Source: a virus
Taxonomy: Duplodnaviria; Caudoviricetes
DNA length: 27,672 bases
Virus record (IMG/VR): IMGVR_UViG_3300010359_000012
Coordinates: 1 to 27,672 of that record
Direction: 5' to 3' (one strand)
Part shown: positions 10,133 through 26,728 of the stretch, in pieces
Layout of the letters: each line of letters opens with the position of its first letter
How positions within the stretch are numbered: the stretch's first letter is position 1
Notes under the pieces: generated by a model
Databases searched by the model: none
Told to the model about the DNA's origin: nothing
Seen by the model: the letters and a program-made list of their open reading frames with translations, nothing else
Translations under genes and position numbers: made by a program

Positions 10133-12096
10133 GCCGCTGTCGCTCCCGTGCCCGTCTCTTGGAATTCACGCGGCGGTGGCGTGCCGGCCGTGGCGGGATC
10201 CGGCGTCGTCGGCGCCCGCTGGATCTCGGGCAATTTGTAAAATCGGCCATCCCCAGCGGGCTCGCGGAAGTAGGTGTCGCCGCCGCGCAGGCTGTAGCCT
10301 AAGGTACCTTTCTGGAATTGATTGGATGCGGTGTTGCCGCGCATCGGTCCTCGGCCGGGGAATACATCCGAGGCGTTGCCGGTCATCGGGCCATATCCGA
10401 TGTCGCTGACATTAGAGCCGTTGAGAACAGGTGTCGCGACCTCGCGGATGAATTGCCGAAATTCCTGCGCCGTCGGCCGCGCCGATGCGCTGTACGTGTT
10501 GTTGGCGTAGTAGCCGCCTCGGGTCCGTATGGTCAGCAATCCTTGGCCCAGGCCCTGGCCGCGCATCTGCGAACGATTGAACACCGTCTCGAGCTGGGTG
10601 ATTTTCGCCTGCAGCGGCGCGTGTCTGCCGACCTCGCCGTTGACCATCCACGCCGCGCGGTAGAGCAGGTTCGGATTGCGCTCCAGCTCAGCGCGGAAGC
10701 TCGAACGATCGACCGTCGCTTGCGTCGGCCGCATCGACGGCGGGTTTCGCGCGGCGGCCGACCACGACGGGATCGCCACCTGGCCGCGCCCGATCGGCGC
10801 GATGGACTGGCCGTCGGCGGTGCGAACCGGCACAGCCGGTGGAGGCGGAATATTCCCCGGAATATTCCCCGCTGTTCCGGGTGGAGGAAGCGACGTCTCG
10901 CCCCCACGAGCGGGGAGGCCGCCGCCTGGAGGGGGCGGAACGGAGCTCGGCGCTCGGGCACCTGGCGTCCCCGGCATGGCCGGGACAAAGCCACCGGGTC
11001 CGAAGTGCATCGGGACCTCCGTCACCGGCTGGCCGGTCACCGCATTTGTGACCGGCGTTCCCGGTTGTGGTGTCTGGTCACCTCCAGGCTGCTGCTGCCC
11101 TATGCGGTTTTGCATAGGGATGCCCATCTGCTGCATGAGCTGTTGCACGATCTGCTCAAGCGGCGATGTCCCACCACCCGTGCCGCCCGCGCCACCCGCA
11201 CCACGCGCGAGCGCCTGCAGGAGCTGCGCGAACGGCTGGATTGCGGCAGGACCGCCGCCCGCACCACCTGCACCCATCCGCATCAGTTGCTGGACGATCT
11301 GCAGCAGCGGTGAAGGCAATCCGCCTCCGGCACCACCGCCAGGAGCGCCGGGGGCGCCTCGAGCCCCGCTCGGCGCCTGCGGCATTTGCGGCGCTCGCTC
11401 ACCGGTATCAGGAGCGGCGGCTGCAGCTGGCGTTTTTTGGAGCGCTGACGCAGGGGCTGGCGAGCTTGTCGGCGTGGCGGCCGCCGGGGTTTGTTCTGGC
11501 CCCGCGCTCGGCGCAGGCTGATCGGGGAATTGCCCCGGCACAGGCCGCACACCGGCATCCTCCAGCATGCTGCCAGAAACCAGCCCAGTCCGCTGTGGGT
11601 TCACCAGATCGGAAAGGCTGCTTAGTCCTGCACCGGGCGCCAGCGGCTGCTGCGGCACCGGGCCGGTCGGCCCCGGTACCACCGGCTGGCCACCGATCTG
11701 CCAGCTCTGCATTCCCTCGCGCAGTTGCTGGATGCTCTGCTGTCGCACGCTCTCGGGCGGCAGTTCAGGCGCCAACGATGGCGGCTTGCCCCCGGCCACG
11801 TCACGCAGCGCATCCTGCGTGCCGGTGTCACCGGACTGCACGCCGCCAAGCTCGGGCGCGCCGACGTCGGGCGATTGCCCACCGGCCACGCCGGTCAACG
11901 CTTCCTCCGGTGACATGGCGAAGGCGCTGAACGGATCGCCACCGCCGCCGAGACCGCCAGTCATGCTGGAGAACGGATCGCCACCGCCGCCGCCCAGTGA
12001 CGAGAACGGATCACCCGCGCCGAGGCTGCCACCGCCGGCCTTGCCGCCACCGACGTCGCCGCCACCACCCGTTGCTGCGCCTACTGCATCGCCCAT
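10129..12096 (-). CDS. Gly/Pro/Gln-rich ejection protein with C-terminal SleB-like cell-wall hydrolase domain
   Basis: Low-complexity N-terminus with GGDPFS repeats; C-terminal MVNGEVG...LETVFNR resembles the GE...V.NR motif of Hydrolase_2/SleB lytic transglycosylases. Confidence 0.6.
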   Translation of the reverse strand: MGDAVGAATGGGGDVGGGKAGGGSLGAGDPFSSLGGGGGDPFSSMTGGLGGGGDPFSAFAMSPEEALTGVAGGQSPDVGAPELGGVQSGDTGTQDALRDVAGGKPPSLAPELPPESVRQQSIQQLREGMQSWQIGGQPVVPGPTGPVPQQPLAPGAGLSSLSDLVNPQRTGLVSGSMLEDAGVRPVPGQFPDQPAPSAGPEQTPAAATPTSSPAPASALQKTPAAAAAPDTGERAPQMPQAPSGARGAPGAPGGGAGGGLPSPLLQIVQQLMRMGAGGAGGGPAAIQPFAQLLQALARGAGGAGGTGGGTSPLEQIVQQLMQQMGIPMQNRIGQQQPGGDQTPQPGTPVTNAVTGQPVTEVPMHFGPGGFVPAMPGTPGARAPSSVPPPPGGGLPARGGETSLPPPGTAGNIPGNIPPPPAVPVRTADGQSIAPIGRGQVAIPSWSAAARNPPSMRPTQATVDRSSFRAELERNPNLLYRAAWMVNGEVGRHAPLQAKITQLETVFNRSQMRGQGLGQGLLTIRTRGGYYANNTYSASARPTAQEFRQFIREVATPVLNGSNVSDIGYGPMTGNASDVFPGRGPMRGNTASNQFQKGTLGYSLRGGDTYFREPAGDGRFYKLPEIQRAPTTPDPATAGTPPPREFQETGTGATAA

Positions 12097-12099
12097 GGG

Positions 12100-12537
12100 T
12101 CAAAATGCGCCGCGCGCATCAGTGAATGTTCCGGCCCCGCCGCTGCCGCCAGATTGGCCGAGGATGGATTCGGCGCCTGATGAGAAATCGTTGTTCTGCT
12201 GCTGCTGCTGCTGCTGCGCCAGGTTGGCGAGCGTGCCCGGCGGAAGCCCTCGGCTGAAATTCTCCATCTCGGCCACAGTCGCACCCGTCGCGTGTTGATT
12301 TTGCGCGAGATTCTTCTTCTTCATCTTGCTCGCGCCGCCATAAGTCGGGTTCATGGGGTCACCGCCCGGTATGCCGATGCCGAGCTGCTGGTACCTGTTG
12401 TGGATCGCCTCGGCATTCTGGCTCCCGGCCTGCTGCGCCATCGCGACATCGAACGGGGAGAGACCGCCGAAGATGCCGCCGCCACCGCCACCACCGCCGC
12501 CTTTGCCGCCACCGCCACCACCCAGCATCGCGCCCAT
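12100..12537 (-). CDS. Small Gly/Gln-rich putative ejection (pilot) protein
   Basis: MGAMLGGGGGGKGGGG start, polyQ tract. Confidence 0.6.
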   Translation of the reverse strand: MGAMLGGGGGGKGGGGGGGGGIFGGLSPFDVAMAQQAGSQNAEAIHNRYQQLGIGIPGGDPMNPTYGGASKMKKKNLAQNQHATGATVAEMENFSRGLPPGTLANLAQQQQQQQNNDFSSGAESILGQSGGSGGAGTFTDARGAF

Positions 12538-12540
12538 GAC

Positions 12541-12963
12541 CTACTCGCTCCCGGCGCTGTCTTGATTGCTGAAGGTGCCCTGCGTGCCAGTCCCGAACAC
12601 ACTTTGAGATCCAGCCTGGAATCTCTGATCTTCCTGGCTCTGGTCCGTGGCGCCTTGCAGTTGCTGTTGCTGCTGTGCCGCTGCCTGCTGATTGGCATTC
12701 GACGCGCGGGCAAGCTCCAGCGCCTCCTTCAGGCGCGCCCCTCCAGCTGCTTGCGTCGCCATGGTCGAGGCGCCCGTGCCGGTGCCGGCGAATGTCGAGC
12801 GCGCGTGCAGCAGATCTTGCCCGAAATGGAATTGCGCGAGCGCCGCTTGCTCGGGGCTGATCCCGCCAGCACCACCTGCGCCGCCACCACCGCCGCCTTT
12901 GCTCCCGGCGGCCGACGCCAGGTTCATCGCGGGTCCAATCAATGCAAAAGGTCCACCCATCAC
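12541..12963 (-). CDS. Small Gly/Ala/Gln-rich putative ejection (P22 gp7-like position) protein
   Basis: Hydrophobic N-terminus then SKGGGGGG, polyQ; similar layout to 12100-12537. Confidence 0.6.
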   Translation of the reverse strand: MMGGPFALIGPAMNLASAAGSKGGGGGGAGGAGGISPEQAALAQFHFGQDLLHARSTFAGTGTGASTMATQAAGGARLKEALELARASNANQQAAAQQQQQLQGATDQSQEDQRFQAGSQSVFGTGTQGTFSNQDSAGSE

Positions 12964-13370
12964 AGCACCATCACGTAGCGGGGAGAGAGTTCAGTGCAGC
13001 CGACGCGCCGCGCGAGCGGCTCGAGGTCGACGTCGGTGTCGGAGGAAATGCGCCAGATCGCGCATTTGCGGCGGCGCGCCCAGTGGATCGAGCCGCGCAG
13101 AAGCGTCGAGGCTTCCCACATGCAGCCGATGTCGGCGCACACGAAGATGATGTTGCACTCGAAGAAGGCCGGCGTCCACGGCACGGTGCACATCATCGCG
13201 ATGACGAACGCGTTGTCGGTGCGTACCGGATAGAACATCATCGGGCCTTTCAGCACGATGTTCCTAAACCATCCCTCGGTGCTCGACTCGTCGTACTCCT
13301 GGCGGTAACGCTTCTTCGCCAGTCGATGCAGCCAGGGGATATCGTCCTCGGTCATCAGCCGAGGCGTCAC
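12960..13370 (-). CDS. GNAT-fold-like protein (T7 gp13-like position)
   Basis: RLMTEDDIPWLHRL start and LLRGSIHWARRRKCAIW..LARRVGC match GNAT motifs; GTGA coupling at 13370. Confidence 0.6.
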   Translation of the reverse strand: MTPRLMTEDDIPWLHRLAKKRYRQEYDESSTEGWFRNIVLKGPMMFYPVRTDNAFVIAMMCTVPWTPAFFECNIIFVCADIGCMWEASTLLRGSIHWARRRKCAIWRISSDTDVDLEPLARRVGCTELSPRYVMVL

Positions 13371-13810
13371 CAGAACGGGAAGATCCAGTCGATCCCGGCC
13401 CCTCCCCGATACGGGTTCTCGAATTCCTTGCGCACCGTTGGCGCGGGCAGGATCGTGTCGTTCGTGACGTAGTGCTCCATATGGTTCGCGAACGTCCACC
13501 ATCGACGTGAATCCGGATTATCGAATCGCGTATCCCTCAGATTCTGGCCCACGAACAGATCGAGCGACATGACCGACGGGGTCGCGAATTGAGCCGGCAG
13601 CGCACCCTGCGCATCGTTGTGCGCCTGCTGATGGTTCATATGCCACGGGCCGCCGGGGATGTCCGTCCCCATCATCGGGTCGAGGACGTACGGCACCACC
13701 GAGAACCGCGACAGCGGAGACATCGCGCCCCAATAGGTGCGATGCGCCATCATGTGTTCGAAGGCATACGTGTGGTGCACGCCTTCGGCCAGCAGATAGA
13801 CGCTCGGCAT
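13367..13810 (-). CDS. Hypothetical His-rich protein (147 aa)
   Basis: TGATG-coupled start; EHMMAH, NHQQAH, NHMEH motifs. Confidence 0.65.
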   Translation of the reverse strand: MPSVYLLAEGVHHTYAFEHMMAHRTYWGAMSPLSRFSVVPYVLDPMMGTDIPGGPWHMNHQQAHNDAQGALPAQFATPSVMSLDLFVGQNLRDTRFDNPDSRRWWTFANHMEHYVTNDTILPAPTVRKEFENPYRGGAGIDWIFPFW

Positions 13811-14139
13811 CAGTCGCGCCGGCTGCGGACCCGTCCCGCGCGGATGTCCTCCGCGCACAGCCGTGTGGCACGATCGCCTTCGCGATAGCGTTCCAGCGAC
13901 GTGCCCATCGGATCAAACTCGCGCGGGTCGATGCGATCCATGCCGAAATCCGATTGCCTACTTTCTTCGGCGCGGACAGCGGCACCTCTTGGACCGACGC
14001 GGGGCTCGGTACCCAAACGCAAAGGCCCGGCGAGTGGTCGATCGGATCTCAGATACCCGTCCGGGGTCACGAAATACCCGACCGGCTGATCGTCTGTCCT
14101 CGGCGGCCATGGGCCCTGCCTGTATCGTTTCTGGGCCAT
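13810..14139 (-). CDS. Hypothetical Arg/Pro/Asp-rich protein (109 aa)
   Basis: TGATG coupling at both ends; MAQKRYRQGPWPPR start. Confidence 0.6.
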   Translation of the reverse strand: MAQKRYRQGPWPPRTDDQPVGYFVTPDGYLRSDRPLAGPLRLGTEPRVGPRGAAVRAEESRQSDFGMDRIDPREFDPMGTSLERYREGDRATRLCAEDIRAGRVRSRRD

Positions 14140-14228
14140 CAGTACCGCCGACGTCCGCGTCGTCTGCTGCGGGCCGCTCGCCGTGATGCGGGGACGAGCA
14201 CCATTCTCCTGCGGGTTCTGCGCGCCAT
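14139..14228 (-). CDS. Protamine-like peptide (29 aa) MARRTRRRMVLVPASRRAARSRRRGRRRY
   Basis: AGGAGAAGGAGG RBS; 14/29 Arg; TGA overlaps the next ATG. Not in the ORF track. Confidence 0.72.
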   Translation of the reverse strand: MARRTRRRMVLVPASRRAARSRRRGRRRY

Positions 14229-14243
14229 TAGCGCCTCCTTCTC

Positions 14244-14681
14244 CTACGTGAACCTCGTGCCTTGCGCAGATTCCTCCGCGCTGCGGCTCTCTGTGACTTT
14301 GTAGCCATCTGTCACTCCAATCGCCGATCGCCACGGAATGCCTTCGGTCTGCAACGCAGCGATCACATCCTGCACTTCCCTGCACACATAGACCGGGACA
14401 CCGGCTTCGTGCAGCAGCGTGAACGTCTCGACCTGATCCCTGCTCAACCGCCCCTTGGCGGTCTTCAGCTCGACGCCGACGGTTTTGCCGCCATAGAACA
14501 CCATGACATCCGGCATCCCTGCCTTGAGCCCGGAACCCTTGAGCCTGCCGCCTGTGGCCCTCGGCAGCTTGCCCCACCCGGCCGGGAACGTGGTGTACAT
14601 GGCCGGCGGCAGCAGCAGCCAGTCGAGCAGCTCCGCGACGGTGCGGTGCAGCTCGCTCTCGGTCGCCTCGCGCCTCTTCAC
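14244..14681 (-). CDS. VRR-NUC domain nuclease
   Basis: ESELH, G.KAGMPD, VELKTAKGRLSRDQ (PD-(D/E)xK); GTGA-coupled start. Confidence 0.88.
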   Translation of the reverse strand: MKRREATESELHRTVAELLDWLLLPPAMYTTFPAGWGKLPRATGGRLKGSGLKAGMPDVMVFYGGKTVGVELKTAKGRLSRDQVETFTLLHEAGVPVYVCREVQDVIAALQTEGIPWRSAIGVTDGYKVTESRSAEESAQGTRFT

Positions 14682-14854
14682 CGTCGCGCCGCCCGGACAG
14701 GTCCAGTGCGCCCGCCTGGTCGAGGTGAGCGGCCGACCCGAGCCTGACCCTTGCGCACGCCACGCATCCAGTCGGACGGAAATGCACCGTCCGACCACGG
14801 CATGCGGACGACCGGACCCGTGCGACCGGGGGCCTTGTTGCGTCTGCGCGCCAT
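14678..14854 (-). CDS. Arg-rich small protein (58 aa) MARRRNKAPGRTGPVVR...GRTGPVRAARR
   Basis: TGATG start, GTGA end, GAGG RBS; 14 Arg; GRTGPV occurs twice. Not in the ORF track. Confidence 0.65.
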   Translation of the reverse strand: MARRRNKAPGRTGPVVRMPWSDGAFPSDWMRGVRKGQARVGRSPRPGGRTGPVRAARR

Positions 14855-15048
14855 CAGCGACGACCTCTCGTGCGCCTGCCGCGCCGACCGCGCACGCGCC
14901 GGCCTCGCCGTCCCCTGGTGGGTCCGGGCGGCCGCTCGAATTGTGCGCGGACAGCTCGGACTTGCACGCCGGTTCGCGGGCGCCGTGTCCTGAACCGGCC
15001 CGCAGGATCGACCCGCGAGCGCGGGCCGAGATTTACTCCTCGCGGCAT
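14854..15048 (-). CDS. Protamine-like protein (64 aa) ending TRGRRGRRVRGRRGRRTRGRR
   Basis: AGGAGG RBS, TGATG coupling at both ends; 24/64 Arg. Confidence 0.7.
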   Translation of the reverse strand: MPRGVNLGPRSRVDPAGRFRTRRPRTGVQVRAVRAQFERPPGPTRGRRGRRVRGRRGRRTRGRR

Positions 15049-15167
15049 CAAATCCTCCTGCCTTTGCGGTAGCTGTAGAGGCGCGGCCGCCACTTCGGCA
15101 GCCGCCAATTCTTGAGCCGCAACGCTCGTCGCAGATTCAGCGACGCGCGTTGCAACGGCCTCGCCAC
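15048..15167 (-). CDS. Basic peptide (39 aa) MARPLQRASLNLRRALRLKNWRLPKWRPRLYSYRKGRRI
   Basis: GGAGG RBS, TAGTG overlap with the upstream stop; 11 Arg + 3 Lys, no acidic residue. Confidence 0.65.
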   Translation of the reverse strand: MARPLQRASLNLRRALRLKNWRLPKWRPRLYSYRKGRRI

Positions 15168-15232
15168 TACCGCCTCCGTCGACGGGCTCTGATGCGCCGC
15201 GCGCGTCGTGTCTGTTTCAGTCGTCGAGCCAT
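15167..15232 (-). CDS. Protamine-like peptide (21 aa) MARRLKQTRRARRIRARRRRR
   Basis: GGGAGAAGAG RBS; 12/21 Arg; stop overlaps the next GTG. Not in the ORF track. Confidence 0.68.
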   Translation of the reverse strand: MARRLKQTRRARRIRARRRRR

Positions 15233-15270
15233 TGCTCTTCTCCCGTTGCTGGGGTGGACGTTGAACGCAT

Positions 15271-16899
15271 TTACGCTCCGAACAGTGTACGCTCTTCTGC
15301 ACCGACGTGTACTCGCTCGATCGTAAAGTCGGGCGAGTAACTTTCGAGATCAATGGCGGCCGCGATACCTCCGCCTTCTAGTGGCTGTGGTTGCATGTCG
15401 TAGCGCTTACCGGGCGCGAGCTGGAAGCCGATGTCCTGTACCCCGGCCGGGACATTGCCGGCGCCCGTGCGCACGACGCCCGTGATGGCCACGCCCTGCC
15501 CGCTGTTGTCGTAGACCTCGAGGAACAGGCGCTTGAAGTTCTTGATGACCAGCCGCGCCATGCCGCTTCCGCGCAGATACTTTGTCGACAGCCGCTTGAT
15601 CAGTTGCGGATCCGGTTGCGCGAAGAGCTGGTAGAGGTTCGTGCCGTCTGTTCCATAAGGCGTGATAATGGAATCCTGCTCGTAGTGTCCGATGTGCGTC
15701 AGCTCGAGGCCCTGTGAGGCGACGGACCAGAACTGTTTGCCCTGCACCGGGTGCCACATCAGCAGCAGCGAGCGCGTGCGGCCCCACGGATCGGTGAAGC
15801 GGCCGTTGCAGAGCACGACCTTGAAGCTGAACATCGTCGCGGTGCACATCGTCGGCAGGTACTGCGAGCTGTCGAGCGTGTTGTAGATCTCGGTGACCTT
15901 GTTGCCGATCTCCTGTGCCTCACCGCCGGTCATCAGGAAGATGCCGGCGCCGTTCCACATCGTGAAGTATCGGCCGATGCGGCCGACCGGGCGCGGGAAT
16001 CTCTGGCCGGTCTGCGGGTCGATGTTCGCGTAATTGAAATTCGTCGTGAACGGCGATTCTGGGCTGCCCTGGCCGGTGAGTTGGATGTTGCTGATGACGT
16101 CCGTGCTCGAATCGCCGAAGCAGAAGAGGTATCCGGCGCTCGCCGCGAGATCCATGTAGCTGTACGTCAGCTTGTTGCCGAAATAGCCGAAGCTGCCGCC
16201 GCCCGATGCGGTCGAGAAATCGGCGCCGTTCGACGGCGCCGAAAACGAGATCACGTCCTTGCCGGCGACGAACAGGCGGGATTGGTATACCTCCATGCAA
16301 TAGATTCCTGGCAGACCGACCGGCATCGGCGGGACCGGCGCGGCCGGATCCGTCTCTGCCAGGTCGGTCAGCCAGTCCGGTGCCGGATCACCGGGACGAG
16401 AGAGTGTGGTCCCTGACCACGCGTACAGTCCCTTCGGCGAGCCGAACAGCACACCGCCCGACTGGCCGGCCACGGAGCCGAAGAAACGCGGCCGCCAGAC
16501 TACCGCCGAGGCCCAATACTGCGGAGCGATCGGGGTCCAGATATCACCGATATCGACCGGGGGGTCGTGGTTGTCGAGGTCGACCTGTACGACGTGACCG
16601 TTGGAGAGGAACATCCATCCCAGACGGCCGCCGAACTGCGGGCCAGGTGCGGCAAACTGCGGTGTCGGGTGTCCGATGAACCCGAAGAACATACGCAAAA
16701 TCTGCGTTCCGGCGGGTGCGGTGTAGAGTGCTGGGCCATGTCCCCAACACGAACGGAGGTTGCCGGGACCAACCGCGAAGAAGTTTTCATTCCACCACTC
16801 CTCCTGATCGTCGATCGTCCCTCTGCGCGCCTGTTGGTTCAGTCCCTTCCACTCCTCCAGCGTGGTGAACTCTGGCGCGTTTGCAGACTGAATCGGCAT
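15271..16899 (-). CDS. Tail nozzle / DNA stabilization protein (P22 gp10 / T7 gp12-like)
   Basis: 542 aa, beta-propeller-like (YQSRLFVAGKDVISFS, GYLFCFG), N-terminal WKGLN; downstream of the adaptor. Confidence 0.7.
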   Translation of the reverse strand: MPIQSANAPEFTTLEEWKGLNQQARRGTIDDQEEWWNENFFAVGPGNLRSCWGHGPALYTAPAGTQILRMFFGFIGHPTPQFAAPGPQFGGRLGWMFLSNGHVVQVDLDNHDPPVDIGDIWTPIAPQYWASAVVWRPRFFGSVAGQSGGVLFGSPKGLYAWSGTTLSRPGDPAPDWLTDLAETDPAAPVPPMPVGLPGIYCMEVYQSRLFVAGKDVISFSAPSNGADFSTASGGGSFGYFGNKLTYSYMDLAASAGYLFCFGDSSTDVISNIQLTGQGSPESPFTTNFNYANIDPQTGQRFPRPVGRIGRYFTMWNGAGIFLMTGGEAQEIGNKVTEIYNTLDSSQYLPTMCTATMFSFKVVLCNGRFTDPWGRTRSLLLMWHPVQGKQFWSVASQGLELTHIGHYEQDSIITPYGTDGTNLYQLFAQPDPQLIKRLSTKYLRGSGMARLVIKNFKRLFLEVYDNSGQGVAITGVVRTGAGNVPAGVQDIGFQLAPGKRYDMQPQPLEGGGIAAAIDLESYSPDFTIERVHVGAEERTLFGA

Positions 16900-16904
16900 G
16901 TCCG

Positions 16905-16957
16905 TGCTATCCTGGCGGTGCGCCGACGGGGTGCATCCCGCCGACGCACCTGACCAC
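16905..16957 (+). promoter_or_regulatory. Extended -10 plus hairpin-CCTGACCAC leader of the antisense inserted gene
   Basis: TGcTATCCT (16905-13), inverted repeat 16917-16950, CCTGACCAC 16949-57. Confidence 0.45.
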
Positions 16958-16979
16958 TGATCTAATGGAGCGTAGAGCA

Positions 16980-17192
16980 ATGGCCGAAGAAGACGCTACC
17001 ACGGTTGCCGATCCTCTCATGCGTAACCTCGACATCCGTGAGAAGCTTGCACACATCGATCAGATGCTGGCCGACCACGATCGCAAGCGGCAGGAGATAA
17101 CGTTCGCGCCGTGGCAGATCGCCGTAACCACCATCGGTGGCGCCGCTGCTCTTTTTGCCGCTGGTGCTGCATTCGTAAAACTCTTCGGTTAG
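16980..17192 (+). CDS. Moron-like small membrane protein (70 aa; coiled coil plus C-terminal TM helix)
   Basis: GGAG RBS; only plus-strand gene inside the late operon; fills the gap between adaptor and nozzle. Confidence 0.7.
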   Translation: MAEEDATTVADPLMRNLDIREKLAHIDQMLADHDRKRQEITFAPWQIAVTTIGGAAALFAAGAAFVKLFG

Positions 17193-17881
17193 GCACTGCG
17201 TATCGTTGCGCCGTATGCCGTCTGAATCATCTGCGGGCACACCACGGCCGCACACATCGGCAAATCGGAATTGAAGAGCTGGGACATAGCAGCTGCATCC
17301 TCGCGCCGCTGTTGCTGCATCAAGCACAACACCGCTGCCCAGTAGCTCACCGCATCGCTCCACGGGTACGGGATCGGCTCCGGATCGTTATCCGTGAGCA
17401 GCGGCGCCGGCACGCAGGTGAGATCGACATCGAACGGCATGATCTGCGAGGGGATCGGTGCGAGATAGATCGAGCCCATGGGGCCGGCGCCGAATTGCGC
17501 CCACCATCCCGGCTCGCTCAGCACGCCGTAGAACGTGCCGTTGTAGATCCTGAAGCGGGCCTGGAAATCGGTCCATATCAAGCGGCGCCACATCGGCTTC
17601 CAGCCACCCTTGCCGATCGCCATGGCGAGCGAGCGGCAATGCAGCACGCTCTGTGCTCCCGGCATCTTCTCCTGCACGAACGATTGCCAGTCGCTGAACG
17701 GGTAGACCTCCTTGCCGCGCTCGGTCTTCGTGTCGCTGACCAAAACGCGGATGCAGCCGCTCGCCCCCGCGACGCGCCGCCGCGCACGGTTGATGTAGTT
17801 CGTCAACGTTGGGATCGAGAAGAACTGACCCTGTGCATCGTTCAGCAGATTTTGCGTTTCGGTGATGTAGGTCGCCAGCAC
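17189..17881 (-). CDS. Head-tail adaptor / tail tubular protein A-like
   Basis: L..YIN.A.RR.A, IYLAPIP, DAVSYWAA motifs; lies between capsid and nozzle. Confidence 0.72.
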   Translation of the reverse strand: MLATYITETQNLLNDAQGQFFSIPTLTNYINRARRRVAGASGCIRVLVSDTKTERGKEVYPFSDWQSFVQEKMPGAQSVLHCRSLAMAIGKGGWKPMWRRLIWTDFQARFRIYNGTFYGVLSEPGWWAQFGAGPMGSIYLAPIPSQIMPFDVDLTCVPAPLLTDNDPEPIPYPWSDAVSYWAAVLCLMQQQRREDAAAMSQLFNSDLPMCAAVVCPQMIQTAYGATIRSA

Positions 17882-17883
17882 GC

Positions 17884-18315
17884 CTACCTCCGACGACGCC
17901 GTCGTGTGGTCGAAGGCGGATCGCCCTCCGGTGCCACGGACTCCTCCAACGATGACGATGCGACCTCGGGGGGCGGCGGCAACCCCCAGCCGCCGATGAA
18001 AATATTCTGCGTTGTCGGTGTTTGCGGCGGCCGCATGTCGCCGATCATCATCTGATTGACGAACACGATCGGTGGCACCGGAAACGTCGTGGTGAAGGCG
18101 GGGAACTCGCCCGGATTGTCACCGCCGATGGTCGGGGTGTCGTACTCGGGCCCGCCGCCGGGTGCGACTACAGGACCGACTAGGACGCCGACCGGAACCT
18201 TGCCGGCGGGCGGCGGGGTTGGTGGCGGGAAAGTCGGGGCCGGGCCTCCCCCTTGGCCGATCAGCGGCGGGGGCAGGATCGGCGTAAAGGCGGGGAAGAG
18301 GGATTCACCAGCCAC
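17884..18315 (-). CDS. Pro-rich protein with C-terminal hexa-Arg
   Basis: FPAFT repeated twice, ends TTRRRRRR; fills the operon gap. Confidence 0.6.
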   Translation of the reverse strand: MAGESLFPAFTPILPPPLIGQGGGPAPTFPPPTPPPAGKVPVGVLVGPVVAPGGGPEYDTPTIGGDNPGEFPAFTTTFPVPPIVFVNQMMIGDMRPPQTPTTQNIFIGGWGLPPPPEVASSSLEESVAPEGDPPSTTRRRRRR

Positions 18316-18637
18316 GACACCAGCACCGCGGTGGAGGAGGAGGACACGGTGGTCGCGGACGGGGATCGGAGCCGGTGATCAGCCCCGTGCCCGGCGCGCG
18401 GGTCTCGCTCTCGAACCGCCACGGGAGGCGCGGGAATGGCCAGCGACCGGTGAGCCATGGCGAGCCCGGCTGCGGGAGTCGGGCGTACGGCGGGTCGAGC
18501 AGGTGCGACCCCGGCATGACGTAGTGCGGCGGGCGCGGCGGCAGCGCGATCGCGCGCGGCGGCGCCGTACAGGGTGGCGGCCGGGGCGGTGAGACGCGAA
18601 CCGGGCGGGGCGGACGTCCGGGCGGTGGGAACATCAT
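18305..18637 (-). CDS. Pro/Arg-rich protein (110 aa)
   Basis: GAGG RBS right after the capsid stop; MMFPPPGRPPRPVRVSPPRPPP... Confidence 0.55.
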   Translation of the reverse strand: MMFPPPGRPPRPVRVSPPRPPPCTAPPRAIALPPRPPHYVMPGSHLLDPPYARLPQPGSPWLTGRWPFPRLPWRFESETRAPGTGLITGSDPRPRPPCPPPPPRCWCRGW

Positions 18638-18641
18638 GACC

Positions 18642-19697
18642 TCATGGTGGTGTCGGTGGCGGCGGTGGCAGCGGCGGTGGCCCAGGCGGGAAGTTGGCGG
18701 CGCCGCCCGTGATCCCCTCAATGATGATGCCGGTGGAAGGTTTCGAGCACACGAGGTTGAGCGCCGTGAGCGACAAGCCCACGCTGGCGATCTGTCCCTG
18801 CGGAATCGTCGAGTACCACCCGGTCCACGCGAAATTGGCATCCTCGTGGATCACCAGGGTGATGTACTTCGAATTGAAGCCGTATGCGGTGCCGACCGGG
18901 CAATTGAGATCGAAGAAGATCGGCGTGTCGCCGAGGAGCAAACCACGGAAACCGGAATTCACCGGATCGTCCTTGCCCCAGCGCGAGCTTGGGTCGTTGT
19001 TGTAGCGCTCGACGGTCATGAAGTCGGTCAGCAGCGTTGTCCAATCCTCCAAAGAACAGACGACAAAATCGAGTGCCTCACCTCCGGAGTTCTTCACCGC
19101 ACGCAGCAGCATCGGGATGAATGTCGCGCGCGTGAGAATGCCGCCGGCCGCCGCGATGCGGAGGCCGCGCCAGGTCGGATACGTTGCGCGATCGAGACCG
19201 CCGTAGATGCCGCTGTTGCCATACGCATCCTGCAGGCTGAACATCTGCAGCACGTCGGTGACCGGCGGTCCGAACAAGGCGTTTGCCAACGCGTTGAGCG
19301 CAGAGTTCTTCAGATCGTTGAGCTTCAGCATGAGGCGCGACGCAACGGCGATTGCATCCTGCGTTACGAGCTGCTCGAGGCCGAGCGAATTAACCGGCGT
19401 CGCCAGCGCGCACATATTGAATTCTGCATTGAGAGTCGCGGCGACATCTGTAGGCAAATTGAACTGTCCTGCCGGCCCGATCCAGCTCGACGCAACGTAC
19501 TGGCCTGTCTGCACCGGCTGCGTATATGGCGACACACCGCCCGATGCGCGGATGGCATTTCTGAGCAGAAGCGCCAGCAACGGGTTCTGTCGATACAAAA
19601 GAACAACAACCATCTGCGCGAACACGCGACGGATGGTTGCTTGCAGCTCCAATCCCGTGGGGCCGGACGGGATGATGCCTGCGCCCAATATCGGCAT
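18642..19697 (-). CDS. Major capsid protein (HK97 fold inferred)
   Basis: 351 aa after scaffold; GIYGGLDRATYPTW, GFRGLLLGDTPIFFDLNCP.G..Y.FNSKY, LVCSKP; poly-Pro C-tail. Confidence 0.85.
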   Translation of the reverse strand: MPILGAGIIPSGPTGLELQATIRRVFAQMVVVLLYRQNPLLALLLRNAIRASGGVSPYTQPVQTGQYVASSWIGPAGQFNLPTDVAATLNAEFNMCALATPVNSLGLEQLVTQDAIAVASRLMLKLNDLKNSALNALANALFGPPVTDVLQMFSLQDAYGNSGIYGGLDRATYPTWRGLRIAAAGGILTRATFIPMLLRAVKNSGGEALDFVVCSLEDWTTLLTDFMTVERYNNDPSSRWGKDDPVNSGFRGLLLGDTPIFFDLNCPVGTAYGFNSKYITLVIHEDANFAWTGWYSTIPQGQIASVGLSLTALNLVCSKPSTGIIIEGITGGAANFPPGPPPLPPPPPTPP

Positions 19698-19700
19698 GGC

Positions 19701-20243
19701 TTACCTCTGTTCTCTCTCTCGCCGCTCGTCGTTGCGGATGGCTTGAAGGATCTGCGTGCGCGCCCAGCCTTCGGGATCCTTGGCAACCTCGGCGAAGCCT
19801 TCCTGTTGGCGGTGGTTCCAGAAGTGATCGCCGCCGTAGGTCGCGTCGGATGGTTTCGGCTGCTTGCTCGCCTTGTAGCTCGCAGCCACCTCGTAGGAGC
19901 CGACGTTGTTCTTCACCATGAACTCCTCGAGTTCTTTCATGCCGTCGTCGGTGAACCCGTACTGCTGCTGGATCTCAGCGCGCTCCTTCTTCCAGGCCTC
20001 ATCCTCGGCCGCCTGCTTGGTCGCGGCCTCGGCGTCCTCTCGCGCTTTTTTCTCCGCGTTGAATCGCGCGTCGACTTCATCGCGGATGTCGAGTTCCGGG
20101 ATCTCGAGGTTGGGGTACTTGCGCTTCGCCAGGCGCTTGGCTTCCTTGCTCAGCGCGGGATCGTTCCAGATCGACTCGGCAAACGCGGCGGTGTGTGAAG
20201 CCACCATCAGCTTGTTGTATTCCTCATCGGAGATGGTGGCCAT
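19701..20243 (-). CDS. Putative capsid scaffolding protein
   Basis: Charged helical/coiled-coil 180 aa directly upstream of the capsid gene; TGATG coupling. Confidence 0.65.
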   Translation of the reverse strand: MATISDEEYNKLMVASHTAAFAESIWNDPALSKEAKRLAKRKYPNLEIPELDIRDEVDARFNAEKKAREDAEAATKQAAEDEAWKKERAEIQQQYGFTDDGMKELEEFMVKNNVGSYEVAASYKASKQPKPSDATYGGDHFWNHRQQEGFAEVAKDPEGWARTQILQAIRNDERREREQR

Positions 20244-20458
20244 CAGTGACCTCCGTCGAACATCCGCGCGAATGCCCGCGCCGCCGCGCTCGGATCTTTC
20301 ATCGCGCAGTCGAAGCAGACGTTCTCGTGATTGGGTCCGTAGGGCCGCAGCTCGTCGTGCTTGCCGCAGAACGCACACACGCCGTCGAACGCATGGGGAT
20401 CGCGGCGGTCCATGATCACCATGTTGCCGCGTCGTTTGAACAGCTTGGCTTTCGTCAT
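20243..20458 (-). CDS. Small zinc-finger protein
   Basis: CAFC...VCFDC. Confidence 0.7.
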   Translation of the reverse strand: MTKAKLFKRRGNMVIMDRRDPHAFDGVCAFCGKHDELRPYGPNHENVCFDCAMKDPSAAARAFARMFDGGH

Positions 20459-20459
20459 G

Positions 20460-20645
20460 TCAGTTGTTGTTGTTCTTGCCGACGATCGCCGGCTGGAGCG
20501 GCACGCCGCCCTCGGGCTTCGGCACGATCGCGGGGATCGCCCCCCACTCGGAGACCTCGCTCTGCGTATCCACCTGCAGGATCGTGCGCGGCGGTGTCTC
20601 GGGCGGGGCAGTAATTGGCGGATCGTAGCTACGGTTTTGACTCAT
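20460..20645 (-). CDS. Hypothetical protein (61 aa)
   Basis: Abuts both neighbours; Pro-rich. Confidence 0.6.
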   Translation of the reverse strand: MSQNRSYDPPITAPPETPPRTILQVDTQSEVSEWGAIPAIVPKPEGGVPLQPAIVGKNNNN

Positions 20646-20850
20646 GATATCAATGCCTTAGCTCTGTTGTTGCGAGATGCCCGACGGTTGGCATTGATGC
20701 GATCTTTGTTCGCATCGCGAGAGTAATTGAAGTTGTATCCCGTCTTTTCTCGCCATTCCTTTGCGCGCTTGGCTCGGCGACGCCATTTCCCTCTCCCCGG
20801 CTCAAAATCGGGAGAGTGTACCACCCACTTGCGCGGCGGAACGGCGCCAT
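20642..20850 (-). pseudogene. Probable degenerate inserted gene (two overlapping short frames; basic helix resembling HNH-endonuclease N-termini)
   Basis: RBS + ATG at 20850 opens a 66-aa frame, while the protein-like RAKEWREK...NKDRINANRRASR is in frame 20642-20824; locally more AT-rich. Confidence 0.35.
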
Positions 20851-20852
20851 GT

Positions 20853-20940
20853 GCTAAGCTCCCTTAGCGACTGGCTCTGCTCCGATCAGAGTTGGTGGTT
20901 AGGCGTTACGGGTGATTAGGCCATCACCCGTGGCGCCGTT
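20853..20940 (+). ncRNA. Three-hairpin structured element, folding favoured on the + (antisense) strand
   Basis: Stems 20853-68, 20870-96 and 20902-37; the latter two need several G-U pairs available only on the + strand. Confidence 0.4.
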
Positions 20941-20941
20941 T

Positions 20942-21448
20942 CTATGCCCCCGGCAGCGGTGTGGCCGGCATCGGGGCTTGCGTCATCATCTGCGGCATTG
21001 GTCCTGCTGGGCTGTCGTCACCCGCACCTTGCTGCGGCTGCTGGCCCTGCTGGCCGAGGATTTTCTGGAACATCGCGTTCTGCGTCACGCGCCTCAACAG
21101 GTCGCGCAGGTTCGTCTGCTGCACGCCAGCCGTCGGTGATCCCGCCGGCAGGTGTCGGCTCACGCGCGAGAGCGCATTGAGAGCGTCACGATGCAGTGGC
21201 GTGCCCGGCTGCAGGCCGGGAAGCGCCTGCTGAATCATTCCGATTGCCTGGAGCAGCATGTTCATGCTGTCAGCCATGTTGCCTGGACCCGGTGCCGAAA
21301 CCTGGGGCCCCTGCCGCTGGCGGGCTAGAGCAGCCAGAATAGGACCGCCGCCAGCGGCAGGAGGCCCACCGACGGTGCCTGGGCCAGCCGGTGATGGCTC
21401 GGTCGGTATACCAGGCGCGGCAGGGGGGTCTTGGTCGCCGATTGCCAT
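20942..21448 (-). CDS. Pro/Gly/Gln-rich head-associated hypothetical protein
   Basis: Between portal and scaffold; helical core LLQAIGMIQQALP. Confidence 0.7.
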   Translation of the reverse strand: MAIGDQDPPAAPGIPTEPSPAGPGTVGGPPAAGGGPILAALARQRQGPQVSAPGPGNMADSMNMLLQAIGMIQQALPGLQPGTPLHRDALNALSRVSRHLPAGSPTAGVQQTNLRDLLRRVTQNAMFQKILGQQGQQPQQGAGDDSPAGPMPQMMTQAPMPATPLPGA

Positions 21449-21509
21449 GGTCCAAAATCCTAAACCCAGAAGTGTCGCTTAGGCAAATCGCAGTTCCATT
21501 CTGTAGGAT

Positions 21510-23228
21510 TCACGACCGACCATCGCGCCGTCGCCGTCCTCCCCTACCGCCCCGCTGCGGTAACTGGATCACGTCGCGCACCAGCTCCTCCTGCTTCTCC
21601 TGTGCCGCTTGCTGCGCCTGTGCCTTCTGCCGCTGACGCAGTCTTGCCAGCAGAAGCTCGGCGCCGGGCGGATGGAGCATGTGGATGAGATCCTCGGCAT
21701 CGACGGCGCCAGCGCGGGCCAGTGCGATCGCGACCTGGCGGTTGTCCTCGGCAAACGCGGGCGAAGCGCTGTGGCTGTCGACTTGGACCTGCACATCGCC
21801 GGGAAGCTGCGAGAGCAGAAACTCCTGGCCCTTGTCGGTCGTGTAGATCGACGCATCCATGGCCTGCATGATGCGCAGCCCGAGGTAGCCGCAGTCTGCG
21901 AGCTGGCGCTCGATGCGCGCAGCCTGATCGATCAATCGGGGACTCGACGTCCTGACCAGGGTCTGCGCGTGAACGCCAGCTCGCACACCGGGCTCACCCT
22001 GCCCGGACATGATCGGCGAGAACCCCGAGGCCTCGTCGAACATCTGCCAAATCAGCTCCAGCTCTTCCTTGAACGTCTCGGGTGGCGGCTCGAGGAGGCG
22101 CTGCGCCTTGGCGTTGGGATTAGGGTCGTTGATGAAGCCGCCTTCGGAAATGATCTTGAAATACTGCTCCTCGGTCACCGACGAGAAGCCGCTCAACACC
22201 TGCGGCGCAGAGACGTTGCGGTCCCACATCACTTTGAGGTCGCGTAGTCGTTTGTTGAGGATGTCCTGCAGCATCTGCACGTCGGCGATGTGCGAACGGC
22301 CCCAGAAATAGCCGGGGGTCGGTTGCGCCTGGACCTTGATGAATGGAGCGCGGCCGGGCACGCGAGAGAGATTGCGTCGTGTGTTCTCACCCTCGACGAT
22401 GATGTCGGGGTAGATGAGCTGGAACGTCGAGTAGTCGTCGCGGTCTGCGTCCTTGAGCCAGAGTTCGCAGAACTTCACCGTCTCCTGAAAGCGGGTATTC
22501 GGCCGCCATGGCGTCGGCACCGGAAACACGTTGACGATGCCGCCGGCCTCGGGATTGACCGAGGTGGCATCGCCCAGCGGTTGCAGGCCGCCGACCACGA
22601 TCTGGTGGAAGTAGGTCGGCTGCTCGTCCTCCTTCTTGCCGGCCCGCGCCTCGAGGATTCTGTCCATGATCGTTTTGCGGCTGGGGTGACCGCTTTCCTC
22701 AAGCATCGAGCGCACGCGCGAGATCGTCGGATAGCTGACGTGGCAGAGACCCTCCTGCTCCTCCAGCGAGAGGATCGTCTCGCCGAGCACGCCGAAATTC
22801 TGCGGGTGAACCGGGGCGATCTTGAACGCCTCACCGTCAGGCCGCAGCTTGAGCAGCTGGCAGCCGTTGATCAGTGACCACACGACCGCCTCGGCGAACG
22901 TGATGTCACTGTCGGTCTGCTTGAAGTCGGCCGAGAGCTTCTCGCTGACGAGCTGGGCGCGCTCAAGCACGTCGTCGGGCTTGCCGCTGTCGAATATGCA
23001 CTGGAAGCGCACGTCGGTCGGCTGCATCAGGAAGCCGGCGAGCTTGTCGATGAACGCCTTCACCTTGTTGTAGATGGCCGCGCGGCTGTCCTGGGTGCCC
23101 TGATAGTAATATTGCGAGGCGCGCGTGTAGACCATGCCGCGCTCATTGGCGCTGCCCATGCACTCGTCGGTCGTTTCGGTCAGAAACTTCTGCAGCGAAA
23201 GCTTCTCTTTGGGGATCCGCAGCATCAC
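21510..23228 (-). CDS. Portal protein (P22-like)
   Basis: 572 aa after terminase; IYNKVKAFID, PGYFWGRS.I.DV..LQ..LN, EASGFSPIMSG; Arg-rich C-tail. Confidence 0.88.
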   Translation of the reverse strand: MMLRIPKEKLSLQKFLTETTDECMGSANERGMVYTRASQYYYQGTQDSRAAIYNKVKAFIDKLAGFLMQPTDVRFQCIFDSGKPDDVLERAQLVSEKLSADFKQTDSDITFAEAVVWSLINGCQLLKLRPDGEAFKIAPVHPQNFGVLGETILSLEEQEGLCHVSYPTISRVRSMLEESGHPSRKTIMDRILEARAGKKEDEQPTYFHQIVVGGLQPLGDATSVNPEAGGIVNVFPVPTPWRPNTRFQETVKFCELWLKDADRDDYSTFQLIYPDIIVEGENTRRNLSRVPGRAPFIKVQAQPTPGYFWGRSHIADVQMLQDILNKRLRDLKVMWDRNVSAPQVLSGFSSVTEEQYFKIISEGGFINDPNPNAKAQRLLEPPPETFKEELELIWQMFDEASGFSPIMSGQGEPGVRAGVHAQTLVRTSSPRLIDQAARIERQLADCGYLGLRIMQAMDASIYTTDKGQEFLLSQLPGDVQVQVDSHSASPAFAEDNRQVAIALARAGAVDAEDLIHMLHPPGAELLLARLRQRQKAQAQQAAQEKQEELVRDVIQLPQRGGRGGRRRRDGRS

Positions 23229-23689
23229 CAGACCTTGTGTGATCGCCGTTTGCTGATCTCGATGAGATCGGGCTCGGCGCCGCTCTTGAGATTCGCCTGC
23301 AACACATCGAGGCCATCACCGTATCGCTGGCGCACCTGGCGGCCGAGCGCCATCGCGTGCTGCATGGCCTGCGGCGTGATCGCGCTTCCGTCAGCCGCCT
23401 TGCCCCAGCTCGACGGGTTGCTGTCTCGGTAGCGGACGTTGGGCGTGGCGTCGTGCCGATCGCGCTGCATGTCAGCGACGTGATAGTCGTTGGCCGCGAT
23501 GTCCTCGGCGAGCGTGGTAGCACGCGCCCGTGGCGAGCCGACGATCCTCGGCGGGACAAACTCCTGGCGCATCGCGGCCGCCGCACACTCTGGGCACTCT
23601 GGCGGGGGCGCCTCCCAGTCCTCGGCGGAGAGCATCACCTCAAGAAAGTGATTGCACTCACTGCATGCGTACGTCCTGACGATCGGCAT
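23225..23689 (-). CDS. FmdB-like zinc-ribbon protein
   Basis: MP..TY.CSECNH.LE...ECPEC. Confidence 0.75.
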   Translation of the reverse strand: MPIVRTYACSECNHFLEVMLSAEDWEAPPPECPECAAAAMRQEFVPPRIVGSPRARATTLAEDIAANDYHVADMQRDRHDATPNVRYRDSNPSSWGKAADGSAITPQAMQHAMALGRQVRQRYGDGLDVLQANLKSGAEPDLIEISKRRSHKVW

Positions 23690-23945
23690 CCTTGCACCCC
23701 ATGATCAGCACGCGCGGATCGTCCACCCGGCCGGCGGCGGTGATCGCACAGCTTTTCCCGCAGGTATGGCAGAGCACGATCCACAGACCGCAACGCGGCG
23801 CCGGATAGGGCAAGCCGACGTTGCAGTGGCGGTCCTCCTCGGCGCAGTCCACGACGACCATGCCTTCGGGATATTTGGGATCCGGCGGGCATCGCGGCTC
23901 GCGGCCGCGATCGACGAAGTAGACGTCCATGTCGGGCTCGGCCAT
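23658..23945 (-). CDS. Cys-rich hypothetical protein (95 aa)
   Basis: TGATG-coupled start; C...C...CHTC. Confidence 0.65.
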   Translation of the reverse strand: MAEPDMDVYFVDRGREPRCPPDPKYPEGMVVVDCAEEDRHCNVGLPYPAPRCGLWIVLCHTCGKSCAITAAGRVDDPRVLIMGCKDADRQDVRMQ

Positions 23946-24133
23946 CAGTAATTCCCTCTCACATAGGCGTTCCAGTAGGCGCCGATCGAATCGGCGGTGA
24001 CGAAGCGGTGGTATTCGATCGCTGGAAAGTTCTGGAGCTGGTAGCTGCGGCCATCGGTGAACGTGATGCTGAGCACCTCCTCCTCCTCGTCGTAGTCGAG
24101 GCGCGCGATCGCGCTGCTCGAGACCGAGACCAT
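23945..24133 (-). CDS. KTSC domain protein
   Basis: VSSSAIARLDYD....L.ITF.DG..Y....P...Y..F..A.SIG.YWN..VR.NY; TGATG-coupled to terminase. Confidence 0.9.
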   Translation of the reverse strand: MVSVSSSAIARLDYDEEEEVLSITFTDGRSYQLQNFPAIEYHRFVTADSIGAYWNAYVRGNY

Positions 24134-25929: not shown

Positions 25930-26149
25930 CGCTGATCTGTGTCTGCAGGAATATGTCGCCGTCCCGACGGTGCCACTGACCGGACAGGTAGACCTGATGC
26001 GCGTCGGACGGCGGCGTCAGGGCGCGCGGGCGGGGCTGCAACAGCGGCTTGAGTGCCTCGGCGATCTTGTCGAGCGCACGCTCGATCTCGCCCACGGAGG
26101 CCTCCAGCGGGCGAGAATCTTGCGGAGCAGCTTTCGGAGCTTTGGCCAT
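25877..26149 (-). CDS. Hypothetical protein, terminase small subunit by position only
   Basis: Immediately upstream of and overlapping terL; helical N-half; no diagnostic motif. Confidence 0.45.
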   Translation of the reverse strand: MAKAPKAAPQDSRPLEASVGEIERALDKIAEALKPLLQPRPRALTPPSDAHQVYLSGQWHRRDGDIFLQTQISDGHPIDPAGHLPAPKRR

Positions 26150-26158
26150 AGGGGAACC

Positions 26159-26203
26159 GGCCGCCTCTGTGCTAAGTTATAGCACAGCGCGGCCCAGTGG
26201 AAA
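26159..26203 (-). promoter_or_regulatory. Palindrome CTGTGCTA-N5-TAGCACAG over an extended -10-like element; candidate late promoter/operator
   Basis: Arms 26167-74 / 26180-87, extended by GGCCGC arms; minus strand reads TGcTATAAC upstream of the packaging genes. Confidence 0.5.
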
Positions 26204-26288
26204 CACGGGGGTGCGTTTTAGACGGGGCGGCCATTCCCCTCCCTGAGATCCCCTAGCCGAGCTGGCCGCCTCGTCGCCCTACAGGCCT

Positions 26289-26495
26289 TCATATGAGCCG
26301 CTCCCCCAAGCAAATTTTGCGGTAGTCCTCGACGATTGCTTCCATGCACTTGATCTCGTGCTCGGCCATCTTTTCCGTCATCGTGCCGGCGCGCACGCGA
26401 CCGGGATAGACGCGGCGCCGCAGGGCCAGCTCGCGCTCGGCGCAGCGCATCTTGTCGTGCTCGGTCACATTCTGACGATCGATAGGGTCCATCAC
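26289..26495 (-). CDS. Phage hypothetical protein (68 aa)
   Basis: K..CAERELALRRRVYP..V..G.MT...A..EI..MEAI; coupled to the upstream gene. Confidence 0.7.
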   Translation of the reverse strand: MMDPIDRQNVTEHDKMRCAERELALRRRVYPGRVRAGTMTEKMAEHEIKCMEAIVEDYRKICLGERLI

Positions 26496-26728
26496 AGGTC
26501 AGGCTCCTCAACAAGATCGAGCCGTCTCTCGATGCGTCTGATGCGCCTTTCGTACATGTCCAGGCGAGCATTGAGAGTTGCCACCTGCGTGACGAGGAGC
26601 CCAAGCACAGCTTCCATGCTCGTGACGCGAGCCGCGAGATTATCAAGGCGCTCGATTGTCGTGTCGAGCTTGCGGCCGAAGTCACGCAGGTGGCGTAGCA
26701 CGATGTCGTCAGGTCCGTTGTCGGTCAT
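26492..26728 (-). CDS. Coiled-coil hypothetical protein (78 aa)
   Basis: Heptad repeats, RIRRIERRLDL end; ATGA coupling. Confidence 0.75.
   Translation of the reverse strand: MTDNGPDDIVLRHLRDFGRKLDTTIERLDNLAARVTSMEAVLGLLVTQVATLNARLDMYERRIRRIERRLDLVEEPDL

Follow-up and report, generated by a model that had tools for sequence, protein, structure and literature searches.

The IMG/VR virus record IMGVR_UViG_3300010359_000012 is a partial phage genome, estimated to be ~52% complete, and the whole stretch of 27,672 nucleotides (nt) that was analyzed is referred to here as the window. Past the predicted tail nozzle gene, the minus strand carries a cassette of six very small, arginine-rich genes. 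Five of them had been listed in an earlier note on this DNA, with coordinates and translations that proved correct: gene A (15167..15232; 21 amino acids (aa), net charge +13), gene B (15048..15167; 39 aa, +14), which has a GTG start and a W-R-L-P motif, gene C (14854..15048; 64 aa, +22), gene D (14678..14854; 58 aa, +14) and gene F (14139..14228; 29 aa, +14). A sixth, gene E (14228..14308; 26 aa, +13), had been missed, and the row is split by a gene for a VRR-NUC nuclease, a predicted junction resolvase (14244..14681, minus strand; 145 aa), which sits between D and E and overlaps the start of E. Together, the six peptides comprise 237 residues with a net charge of +90, and their sizes range from 2.8 to 7.5 kDa.

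Most of these genes are tightly joined. Stop and start codons overlap by 1 nt at the A/B, B/C and C/D junctions and between F and a conserved 109-aa gene (13810..14139, minus strand), and by 4 nt between D and the nuclease gene, as the note had described. Gene E is coupled to F, and gene A begins 39 nt past the nozzle stop codon with no coupling to the nozzle gene. Each of the five reported genes is also preceded by a Shine-Dalgarno (SD) sequence, with anti-SD pairing energies of -7.4 (A), -9.5 (B), -10.3 (C), -6.5 (D, the weakest of the five) and -11.7 kcal/mol (F), compared to -7.1 for the capsid gene and -5.9 for gene E. A short leader (15233..15270, minus strand) ends in the SD of gene A, and it contains a motif that is also present in the leader ahead of a distant lineage's first basic gene. 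When this leader pattern was searched in 335 loci, 35 matches were found on the same strand and one on the reverse strand, and 34 of the 35 lie ahead of a basic micro-gene.

Arginine-rich open reading frames (ORFs), shadow ORFs included, are frequent in the GC-rich window, and therefore the case for these genes rests on coupling, ribosome-binding sites and conservation. The window holds a chain of four coupled basic ORFs. The longest chain in 1000 dinucleotide resamples of the region was two, with none reaching three, and chains elsewhere in the window also reach two at most.

We examined conservation in the clade of the window by searching with the nozzle protein, which identified 42 viral loci. 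After three partial loci were left out, 39 remained; they fall into 37 groups at 95% identity, and in pairwise comparison their nozzles are 59-100% identical (median 69%). Thirty-two loci with at least 1.5 kb past the nozzle were used, including the window's own record and one near-duplicate. Pattern searches recovered C and D in all 32, B in 30, A in 27, E in 14 (within 1.9 kb of the nozzle) and F in 8, and the order A-B-C-D is constant wherever the genes are present. By eye, the two B misses are variant B genes, and two further E genes lie farther downstream. Gene F is mobile within the cassette and occupies three different positions. The downstream 109-aa gene is present in 30 of 31 loci and matched nothing in Pfam or PHROG scans. 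Relatives carry additional near-pure arginine genes of 12-20 aa. An automatic census of 31 loci, which has some visible misses and false calls, counted 3-9 genes per locus (median 6) with a median net charge of ~+75, and placed 110 of 149 junctions within -11 to +12 nt. Across 37 loci, the density of SD-led arginine-rich micro-ORFs is 1.5 per kb within the cassette (85 in 56 kb) and 0.027 per kb on the same strand outside it (14 in 509 kb), which is a ~55-fold local enrichment; the opposite strand of the cassette has a single one. In one relative (L011), a 63-aa ORF with a Cys/His motif, which we take to be of the kind found in HNH-associated domains, is inserted between B and C (535-726 nt past the nozzle stop).

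The pattern of change argues that the cassette genes are real and evolve as protein under selection. Protein-guided alignments gave ratios of non-synonymous to synonymous change (pN/pS) of 0.24 for A, 0.55 for B, 0.39 for C, 0.40 for D, 0.42 for E and 0.25 for F, with 0.32 for the nozzle in 20 loci, in a comparison where synonymous sites are near saturation. AGR and CGN codons are both used in 27 of 33 conserved arginine columns. To avoid protein-alignment bias, we aligned 15 hand-picked pairs as DNA; these pairs, which are not phylogenetically independent, showed 364, 252 and 836 mismatches at the first, second and third codon positions, and 611 synonymous versus 123 non-synonymous single changes. 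Internal gaps in these alignments were not multiples of three in 27 of 58 cases, as might be expected of chance frames in GC-rich DNA or of the by-product of a conserved RNA or DNA element. However, because neither partner of any pair has an interrupted frame, these gaps probably reflect compensating alignment artefacts within arginine runs. The abundance of shadow ORFs also speaks for chance, but third-position bias, AGR/CGN switching, conserved starts and stops, the 55-fold enrichment and the chain statistic all speak against it, and we regard it as effectively excluded by the selection pattern. The comparison with relatives that the note had proposed could have gone against its claim, and instead frames, gene order, ribosome-binding sites and coupling are conserved, with changes that are mostly synonymous.

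Each peptide of the window is 24-57% arginine with 0-2 acidic residues, and families A-F taken together contain 1808 Arg, 334 Lys and 123 Asp plus Glu in 5790 residues. The label "protamine-like" from the earlier note fits A, E and F, and the short pure-arginine genes of relatives, judged by composition. In B, C and D, by contrast, conserved Trp, Pro, Gly, Asp and Leu motifs suggest folding or docking. Gene C encodes a near-invariant 17-residue N-terminal motif followed by a variable Arg/Gly tail (alignment A4), and gene D a conserved Pro/Gly C-terminal motif with an optional Trp/Asp segment. Relatives also carry a family, H, in which a short acidic or hydrophobic leader is joined to a basic arginine block. 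Its junction, Asp/Glu/Asn-Arg/Lys-Arg, is pro-peptide-like and recurs (L005, L008, L020, L025, L033, L277, L297 and others); no protease for this junction was identified. The six peptides of the window had no Pfam match, and PHROGs returned only two weak matches of unknown function, both for E (E-values 0.02-0.03). NCBIfam gave one weak, unrelated match for D, and the ESM Atlas, searched with C only, gave none. A complex prediction with two capsid subunits and peptide C scored 0.01, which speaks neither for nor against docking.

In all 31 loci, the first conserved gene past D encodes a nuclease, and three kinds occur. The slot is filled by VRR-NUC in 17 (in the window, PF08774 with E-value 1e-6, plus phrog_93 and phrog_5702), by a phrog_1770 Holliday-junction resolvase in 10 and by phrog_244/PDDEXK_15 in 4; the latter two assignments were confirmed on two examples each. 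Three exchangeable resolvase types in one slot suggest that this is a DNA-handling operon. Resolvases debranch DNA for packaging in T4 and T7.

Beyond what the earlier note had covered, basic micro-genes are a family-wide trait, which occupies a head-module site in other lineages and is absent in some relatives. Three distant lineages, with capsids ~35-41% identical to that of the window, have one to three basic genes of 9-24 codons between the portal and the scaffold/capsid genes. Two GenBank records from Manatee Spring (capsid 36% identical) have no cassette past the nozzle and carry two SD-led 13-codon Lys/Arg genes between the portal gene and a Pro/Gln-rich head gene; both records leave these genes unannotated and call opposite-strand ORFs there. 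Among 56 Manatee Spring-like relatives with enough flank, a fixed interval holds two basic genes in 46, one in 7 and none in 3. The density is 2.2 per kb in the interval and 0.007 per kb elsewhere, and third codon positions are the most variable. In a wider set, which retains duplicates across collections, 65 of 70 loci have basic genes, and the five without them form one nested, supported group in a tree of 47 of 117 rows.

The third lineage (representative 41% identical) comprises 48 loci, of which four with short flank were left out. One to three basic genes were found in 43 of the 44 scanned, and the 44th has one by eye. Its leader-plus-basic peptides resemble family H, and the leader motif before gene A of the window recurs ahead of the first basic gene in 29 of its loci. 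In the fourth lineage, all 10 loci that have upstream flank carry basic genes (13 of 15 scanned), and a further locus, L267, has one. In the clade of the window, the head-module site is empty in 40 loci, the one match being the portal's own tail. From these comparisons, the cassette appears to be an expanded, relocated and arginine-shifted form of an older head-module trait. Because some relatives lack the genes, their role is accessory. One sister lineage alone accounts for an estimated ~1,800 IMG/VR stretches.

Basic, often Arg/Gly-rich C-termini end the portal (21510-21575) and a 143-aa Pro-rich protein (17884-17910) of the window, and in the 40 loci of the clade that were inspected, 4-7 of the final 15 residues of the portal are Arg or Lys. 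A 60-aa basic ORF (20642-20824, minus strand) overlaps the start of a conserved 61-aa head gene, and a 15-pair hairpin lies at 20902-20937. In loci without the peptides (L250, L252, L253, L258, L117 and L119), the head gene that follows the missing peptides encodes a Glu-rich N-terminal stretch. Genomes in the clade of the window are larger than those of the Manatee Spring-like lineage (several contigs of 40-43 kb versus 34-36 kb), and their peptides carry more charge. The idea that peptide load tracks genome length is unsupported within the Manatee Spring-like lineage, where a peptide-less contig reaches 36.5 kb.

Structured RNA accompanies the basic genes of other lineages. In Manatee Spring-like phages, the SD of the second basic gene is immediately preceded by a conserved H-type pseudoknot (L043:3565-3602, ~50 related loci, alignment A3), with 91.6% of cells paired and covariation that exceeds 500 of 500 shuffles and all slid controls; it is missing from the six peptide-less loci checked. 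Rfam searches found nothing at gathering score in five sources, and the sister-lineage spacer gave just two chance-level matches. In the third lineage, a promoter-like site precedes the first basic gene in 18 of 22 loci, and in L277 a terminator-like hairpin follows it. A different pseudoknot-like motif lies ~10-60 nt past the nozzle stop, before the family H gene, in a subgroup of nine loci from the clade of the window (L025, L029, L030, L033-L036, L038, L039); it is complete in 12 of 57 exact pattern matches in viral contigs and absent from the window.

These elements raise the possibility that the peptides have a cellular role and are never packaged. They would then coat either the newly made DNA of the phage or the nucleoid of the host, or would bind RNA in the manner of arginine-rich motifs for late-gene control. 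The covarying pseudoknot, the promoter-like sites, the L277 hairpin and the nuclease gene inside the cassette all agree with such a role. In the window, however, the stretch between genes A and F has neither the Manatee Spring-like pseudoknot pattern nor a minus-strand terminator-like site, and positions 12000-26500 contain no promoter-like site. Six coupled genes also exceed the needs of a regulator. Antiterminators of the lambda N type are ~100 aa and have polymerase-binding regions in addition to the part that binds an RNA hairpin. The cassette peptides have 21-64 aa, structured RNA lies beside the genes in other lineages and was not seen in the window, and the 9-14-residue peptides lack the further domains that lambda N needs. 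We consider a cellular role unlikely. Attenuator leader peptides were rejected for the window cassette by the selection on non-basic residues together with the lack of a terminator-like site between the genes.

The reading that we favor, to which we would give about an even chance, is that the peptides are polycations produced late, which enter the head and screen the DNA in part; C and D would in addition dock by way of their conserved non-basic motifs. The cassette peptides would be made late, together with the virion genes, and coupled translation from good ribosome-binding sites would yield ample and similar amounts. They would reach the prohead during assembly and bind the incoming DNA. 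A, E, F and the pure-arginine genes of relatives would act mainly by charge, whereas C, D and perhaps B would use their non-basic motifs to bind a virion protein and extend Arg/Gly arms toward the DNA. The six polycations would then partly neutralize the packaged DNA, as phage-encoded counter-ions. The genome-condensation or nucleoprotein system proposed in the earlier note is a possible role of this kind. Three to nine genes per phage and a mobile gene F are expected if total charge matters. Distant lineages have theirs in the head module; the site of the trait thus differs, but at both sites it lies in a morphogenesis operon. We also count for this proposal the predicted resolvase-type gene found in the same operon at all 31 loci. 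By calculation, neutralizing 20% of the phosphates of a 42.5-kb genome takes ~230 peptide sets with a volume of ~6,800 nm3. This amount can be accommodated in a head of 74,000-113,000 nm3, a volume that assumes an inner radius of 26-30 nm.

Several points weigh against packaged polycations. Neutralizing 90% of the phosphates would take ~1,020 sets, or ~30,500 nm3 beside 45,400 nm3 of DNA, which is a tight fit; these volume limits make partial rather than full neutralization likely. Charge alone cannot account for the invariant motifs of C and D. We found no capsid-targeting signal, no leader shared among A-F, and no maturation protease among 31 window proteins scanned from a record that is ~52% complete. 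Some relatives do without the genes: the five nested Manatee Spring-like loci and a sixth found separately, among which is a 36.5-kb contig that ranks with the largest of that lineage; the lineage L268-L272, which shows none (three of five loci read); and Mx8, which shows none in 28 kb. The promoter-like sites, hairpins and covarying pseudoknot of distant lineages also fit an RNA-level role. Finally, published accounts have tailed phages package their DNA naked, together with polyamines and cations (PMC6755088, PMC7096446).

The position of the cassette between nozzle and presumed ejection genes, and the invariant non-basic motifs of C and D, could also mean that each peptide is present in few copies and docks at one specific site in the neck, tail channel or ejection core, where it holds the DNA end or the ejection proteins until it leaves on infection. 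There is precedent in T7, where gp7.3 and gp6.7 are small virion proteins (99 and 88 aa, 6 and 12 copies) that are ejected, and the six copies of gp7.3 anchor the DNA end at the adaptor-nozzle junction (PMC11784390). The cassette peptides, known here from their genes, resemble these as small podophage proteins. Unlike gp7.3 and gp6.7, which are not arginine polymers, they are arginine-rich; no similarity between the two sets was detected, and PHROG and Pfam scans gave no match to gp7.3 or gp6.7. A low-copy part leaves unexplained why a phage would have 3-9 such genes, near-pure arginine genes of 12-17 aa and a mobile gene F, and the distant lineages carry only genes of 9-24 codons, in the head module. 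This alternative is, in our estimate, improbable to the same degree as a cellular role.

Small cationic peptides might instead be membrane-active, serving lysis or entry, like the disruptin gp28 of phiKT (56 aa, net +7, predicted amphipathic helix), which is encoded in a lysis cassette (bioRxiv 10.1101/515445). Gene B, the most hydrophobic product (33%), has two Trp, and reading the ORFs beside the endolysin gene by eye revealed no recognizable spanin. Yet the endolysin gene is ~11 kb from the cassette, and the cassette peptides are encoded among virion genes with charges of +13 to +22. None of them has a hydrophobic stretch: averaged over 11 residues, hydrophobicity peaks at no more than 0.23, and the peak is negative for four of six. 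A membrane-active role thus seems very improbable.

Packaged polycations have counterparts in other viruses. Baculovirus P6.9 and the protamines are small and arginine-rich, with few acidic residues, and the cassette peptides resemble them and adenovirus VII and mu in being small, arginine-rich and nearly free of acidic residues. In contrast to these eukaryotic systems, the peptides come from 3-9 separate coupled micro-genes in a motor-packaged tailed phage, and no homology was found. Protein J of the Microviridae (phiX174) and VP8 of gokushoviruses are tiny basic proteins with DNA-binding arms and a capsid-docking motif, an arrangement like that proposed for C and D. However, microvirus J is the product of one gene, with fixed capsid stoichiometry, in a tailless single-stranded DNA phage, whereas the phage of the window is a tailed double-stranded DNA (dsDNA) phage. 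In adenovirus, protein VII screens DNA-DNA repulsion and lowers internal pressure (PMC6755088). T4 has the non-essential head proteins IPI-IPIII, with ~360 copies each, which are processed by gp21; IPII and IPIII carry a capsid-targeting sequence, and IPI is injected with the DNA (PMC9958956). Unlike these, A-F have no shared leader and the window gave no protease match, although family H of relatives has an acidic leader. Gp4 of phage Patience is a capsid-binding accessory protein, and the available part of that report holds nothing on DNA binding (PMC11965321). The peptides of the cassette match no described family and may work like viral core polycations. We found no description of such basic or protamine-like genes in the tailed-phage literature, in a coverage that is largely open-access and leaves their absence from print unproven.

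A broader proposal, which we hold a little below an even chance, is that the P22-like podophages, as a widespread family, encode their own protamine-like counter-ions, with one to three ancestral Lys/Arg peptides in the head module and, in one clade, an arginine-rich cassette of up to nine genes beside the nozzle. A nucleoprotein would then be packaged, capsid pressure would be tuned genetically, and peptide-coated DNA might be delivered to the host. Phage-encoded polycations in a virion operon would be an exception to the naked-DNA view in an abundant family; according to reviews, tailed phages that package by motor keep their DNA naked and balance it with polyamines and ions of the host, in contrast to viruses that rely on basic domains of proteins (PMC6755088, PMC7096446). 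Genes of this kind escape gene callers, and their products would be lost in tryptic proteomics. The peptides are short enough for synthesis, so that DNA condensation and effects on packaging and ejection are directly testable, and sister phages provide natural pairs with and without the genes.

The cassette lies in a minus-strand morphogenesis operon that runs from terminase, portal, capsid and adaptor genes through a 542-aa gene and the cassette to a GNAT-type gene and Gly/Pro-rich genes. The terminase, adaptor and capsid proteins match phrog_2, phrog_399 and phrog_9953, respectively; the portal has weak P22-portal matches in profile scans, and the HK97-type capsid a weak match to PDB 7f38. 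By these sequence features, together with the nozzle, the virus of the window is a tailed dsDNA phage. The upstream anchor of the cassette is the 542-aa gene (15271..16899, minus strand; length counted from the ATG). An AlphaFold2 model of its product (mean predicted local distance difference test score of 60) matched podophage tail chains in the PDB with E-values of 3e-10 to 6e-7, including VP1 (3e-10), P22 8u10 (5e-9), Pa223, Pan3, Sf6 and Pam1. PHROGs gave no match and a nozzle profile found none among PDB sequences, so it is the fold of the model that identifies the gene as encoding a P22 gp10-like tail nozzle (hub). The location "between tail nozzle and ejection genes" given in the earlier note thus holds on the nozzle side, and the Gly/Pro-rich genes are presumed ejection genes from position and composition.

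The GNAT-type acetyltransferase gene (12960..13502, minus strand; phrog_1249, E-value 0.002) has an uncertain start and precedes the Gly-rich presumed ejection genes. Mx8 has an acyltransferase gene third after its capsid-neck genes, ahead of genes annotated as "virion structural protein". No close relative in culture was found: the phage collection yielded two environmental records and weak Mx8 matches. Three short contigs from metagenome-assembled genomes, two of which carry the cassette, have conflicting labels (Xanthobacteraceae, Caulobacteraceae and Terracidiphilus) and may be binned phage DNA. Elsewhere in the window, a C5 methyltransferase ORF (1448-2572, minus strand) is almost wholly overlapped by a 356-aa ORF on the same strand (1492-2562).
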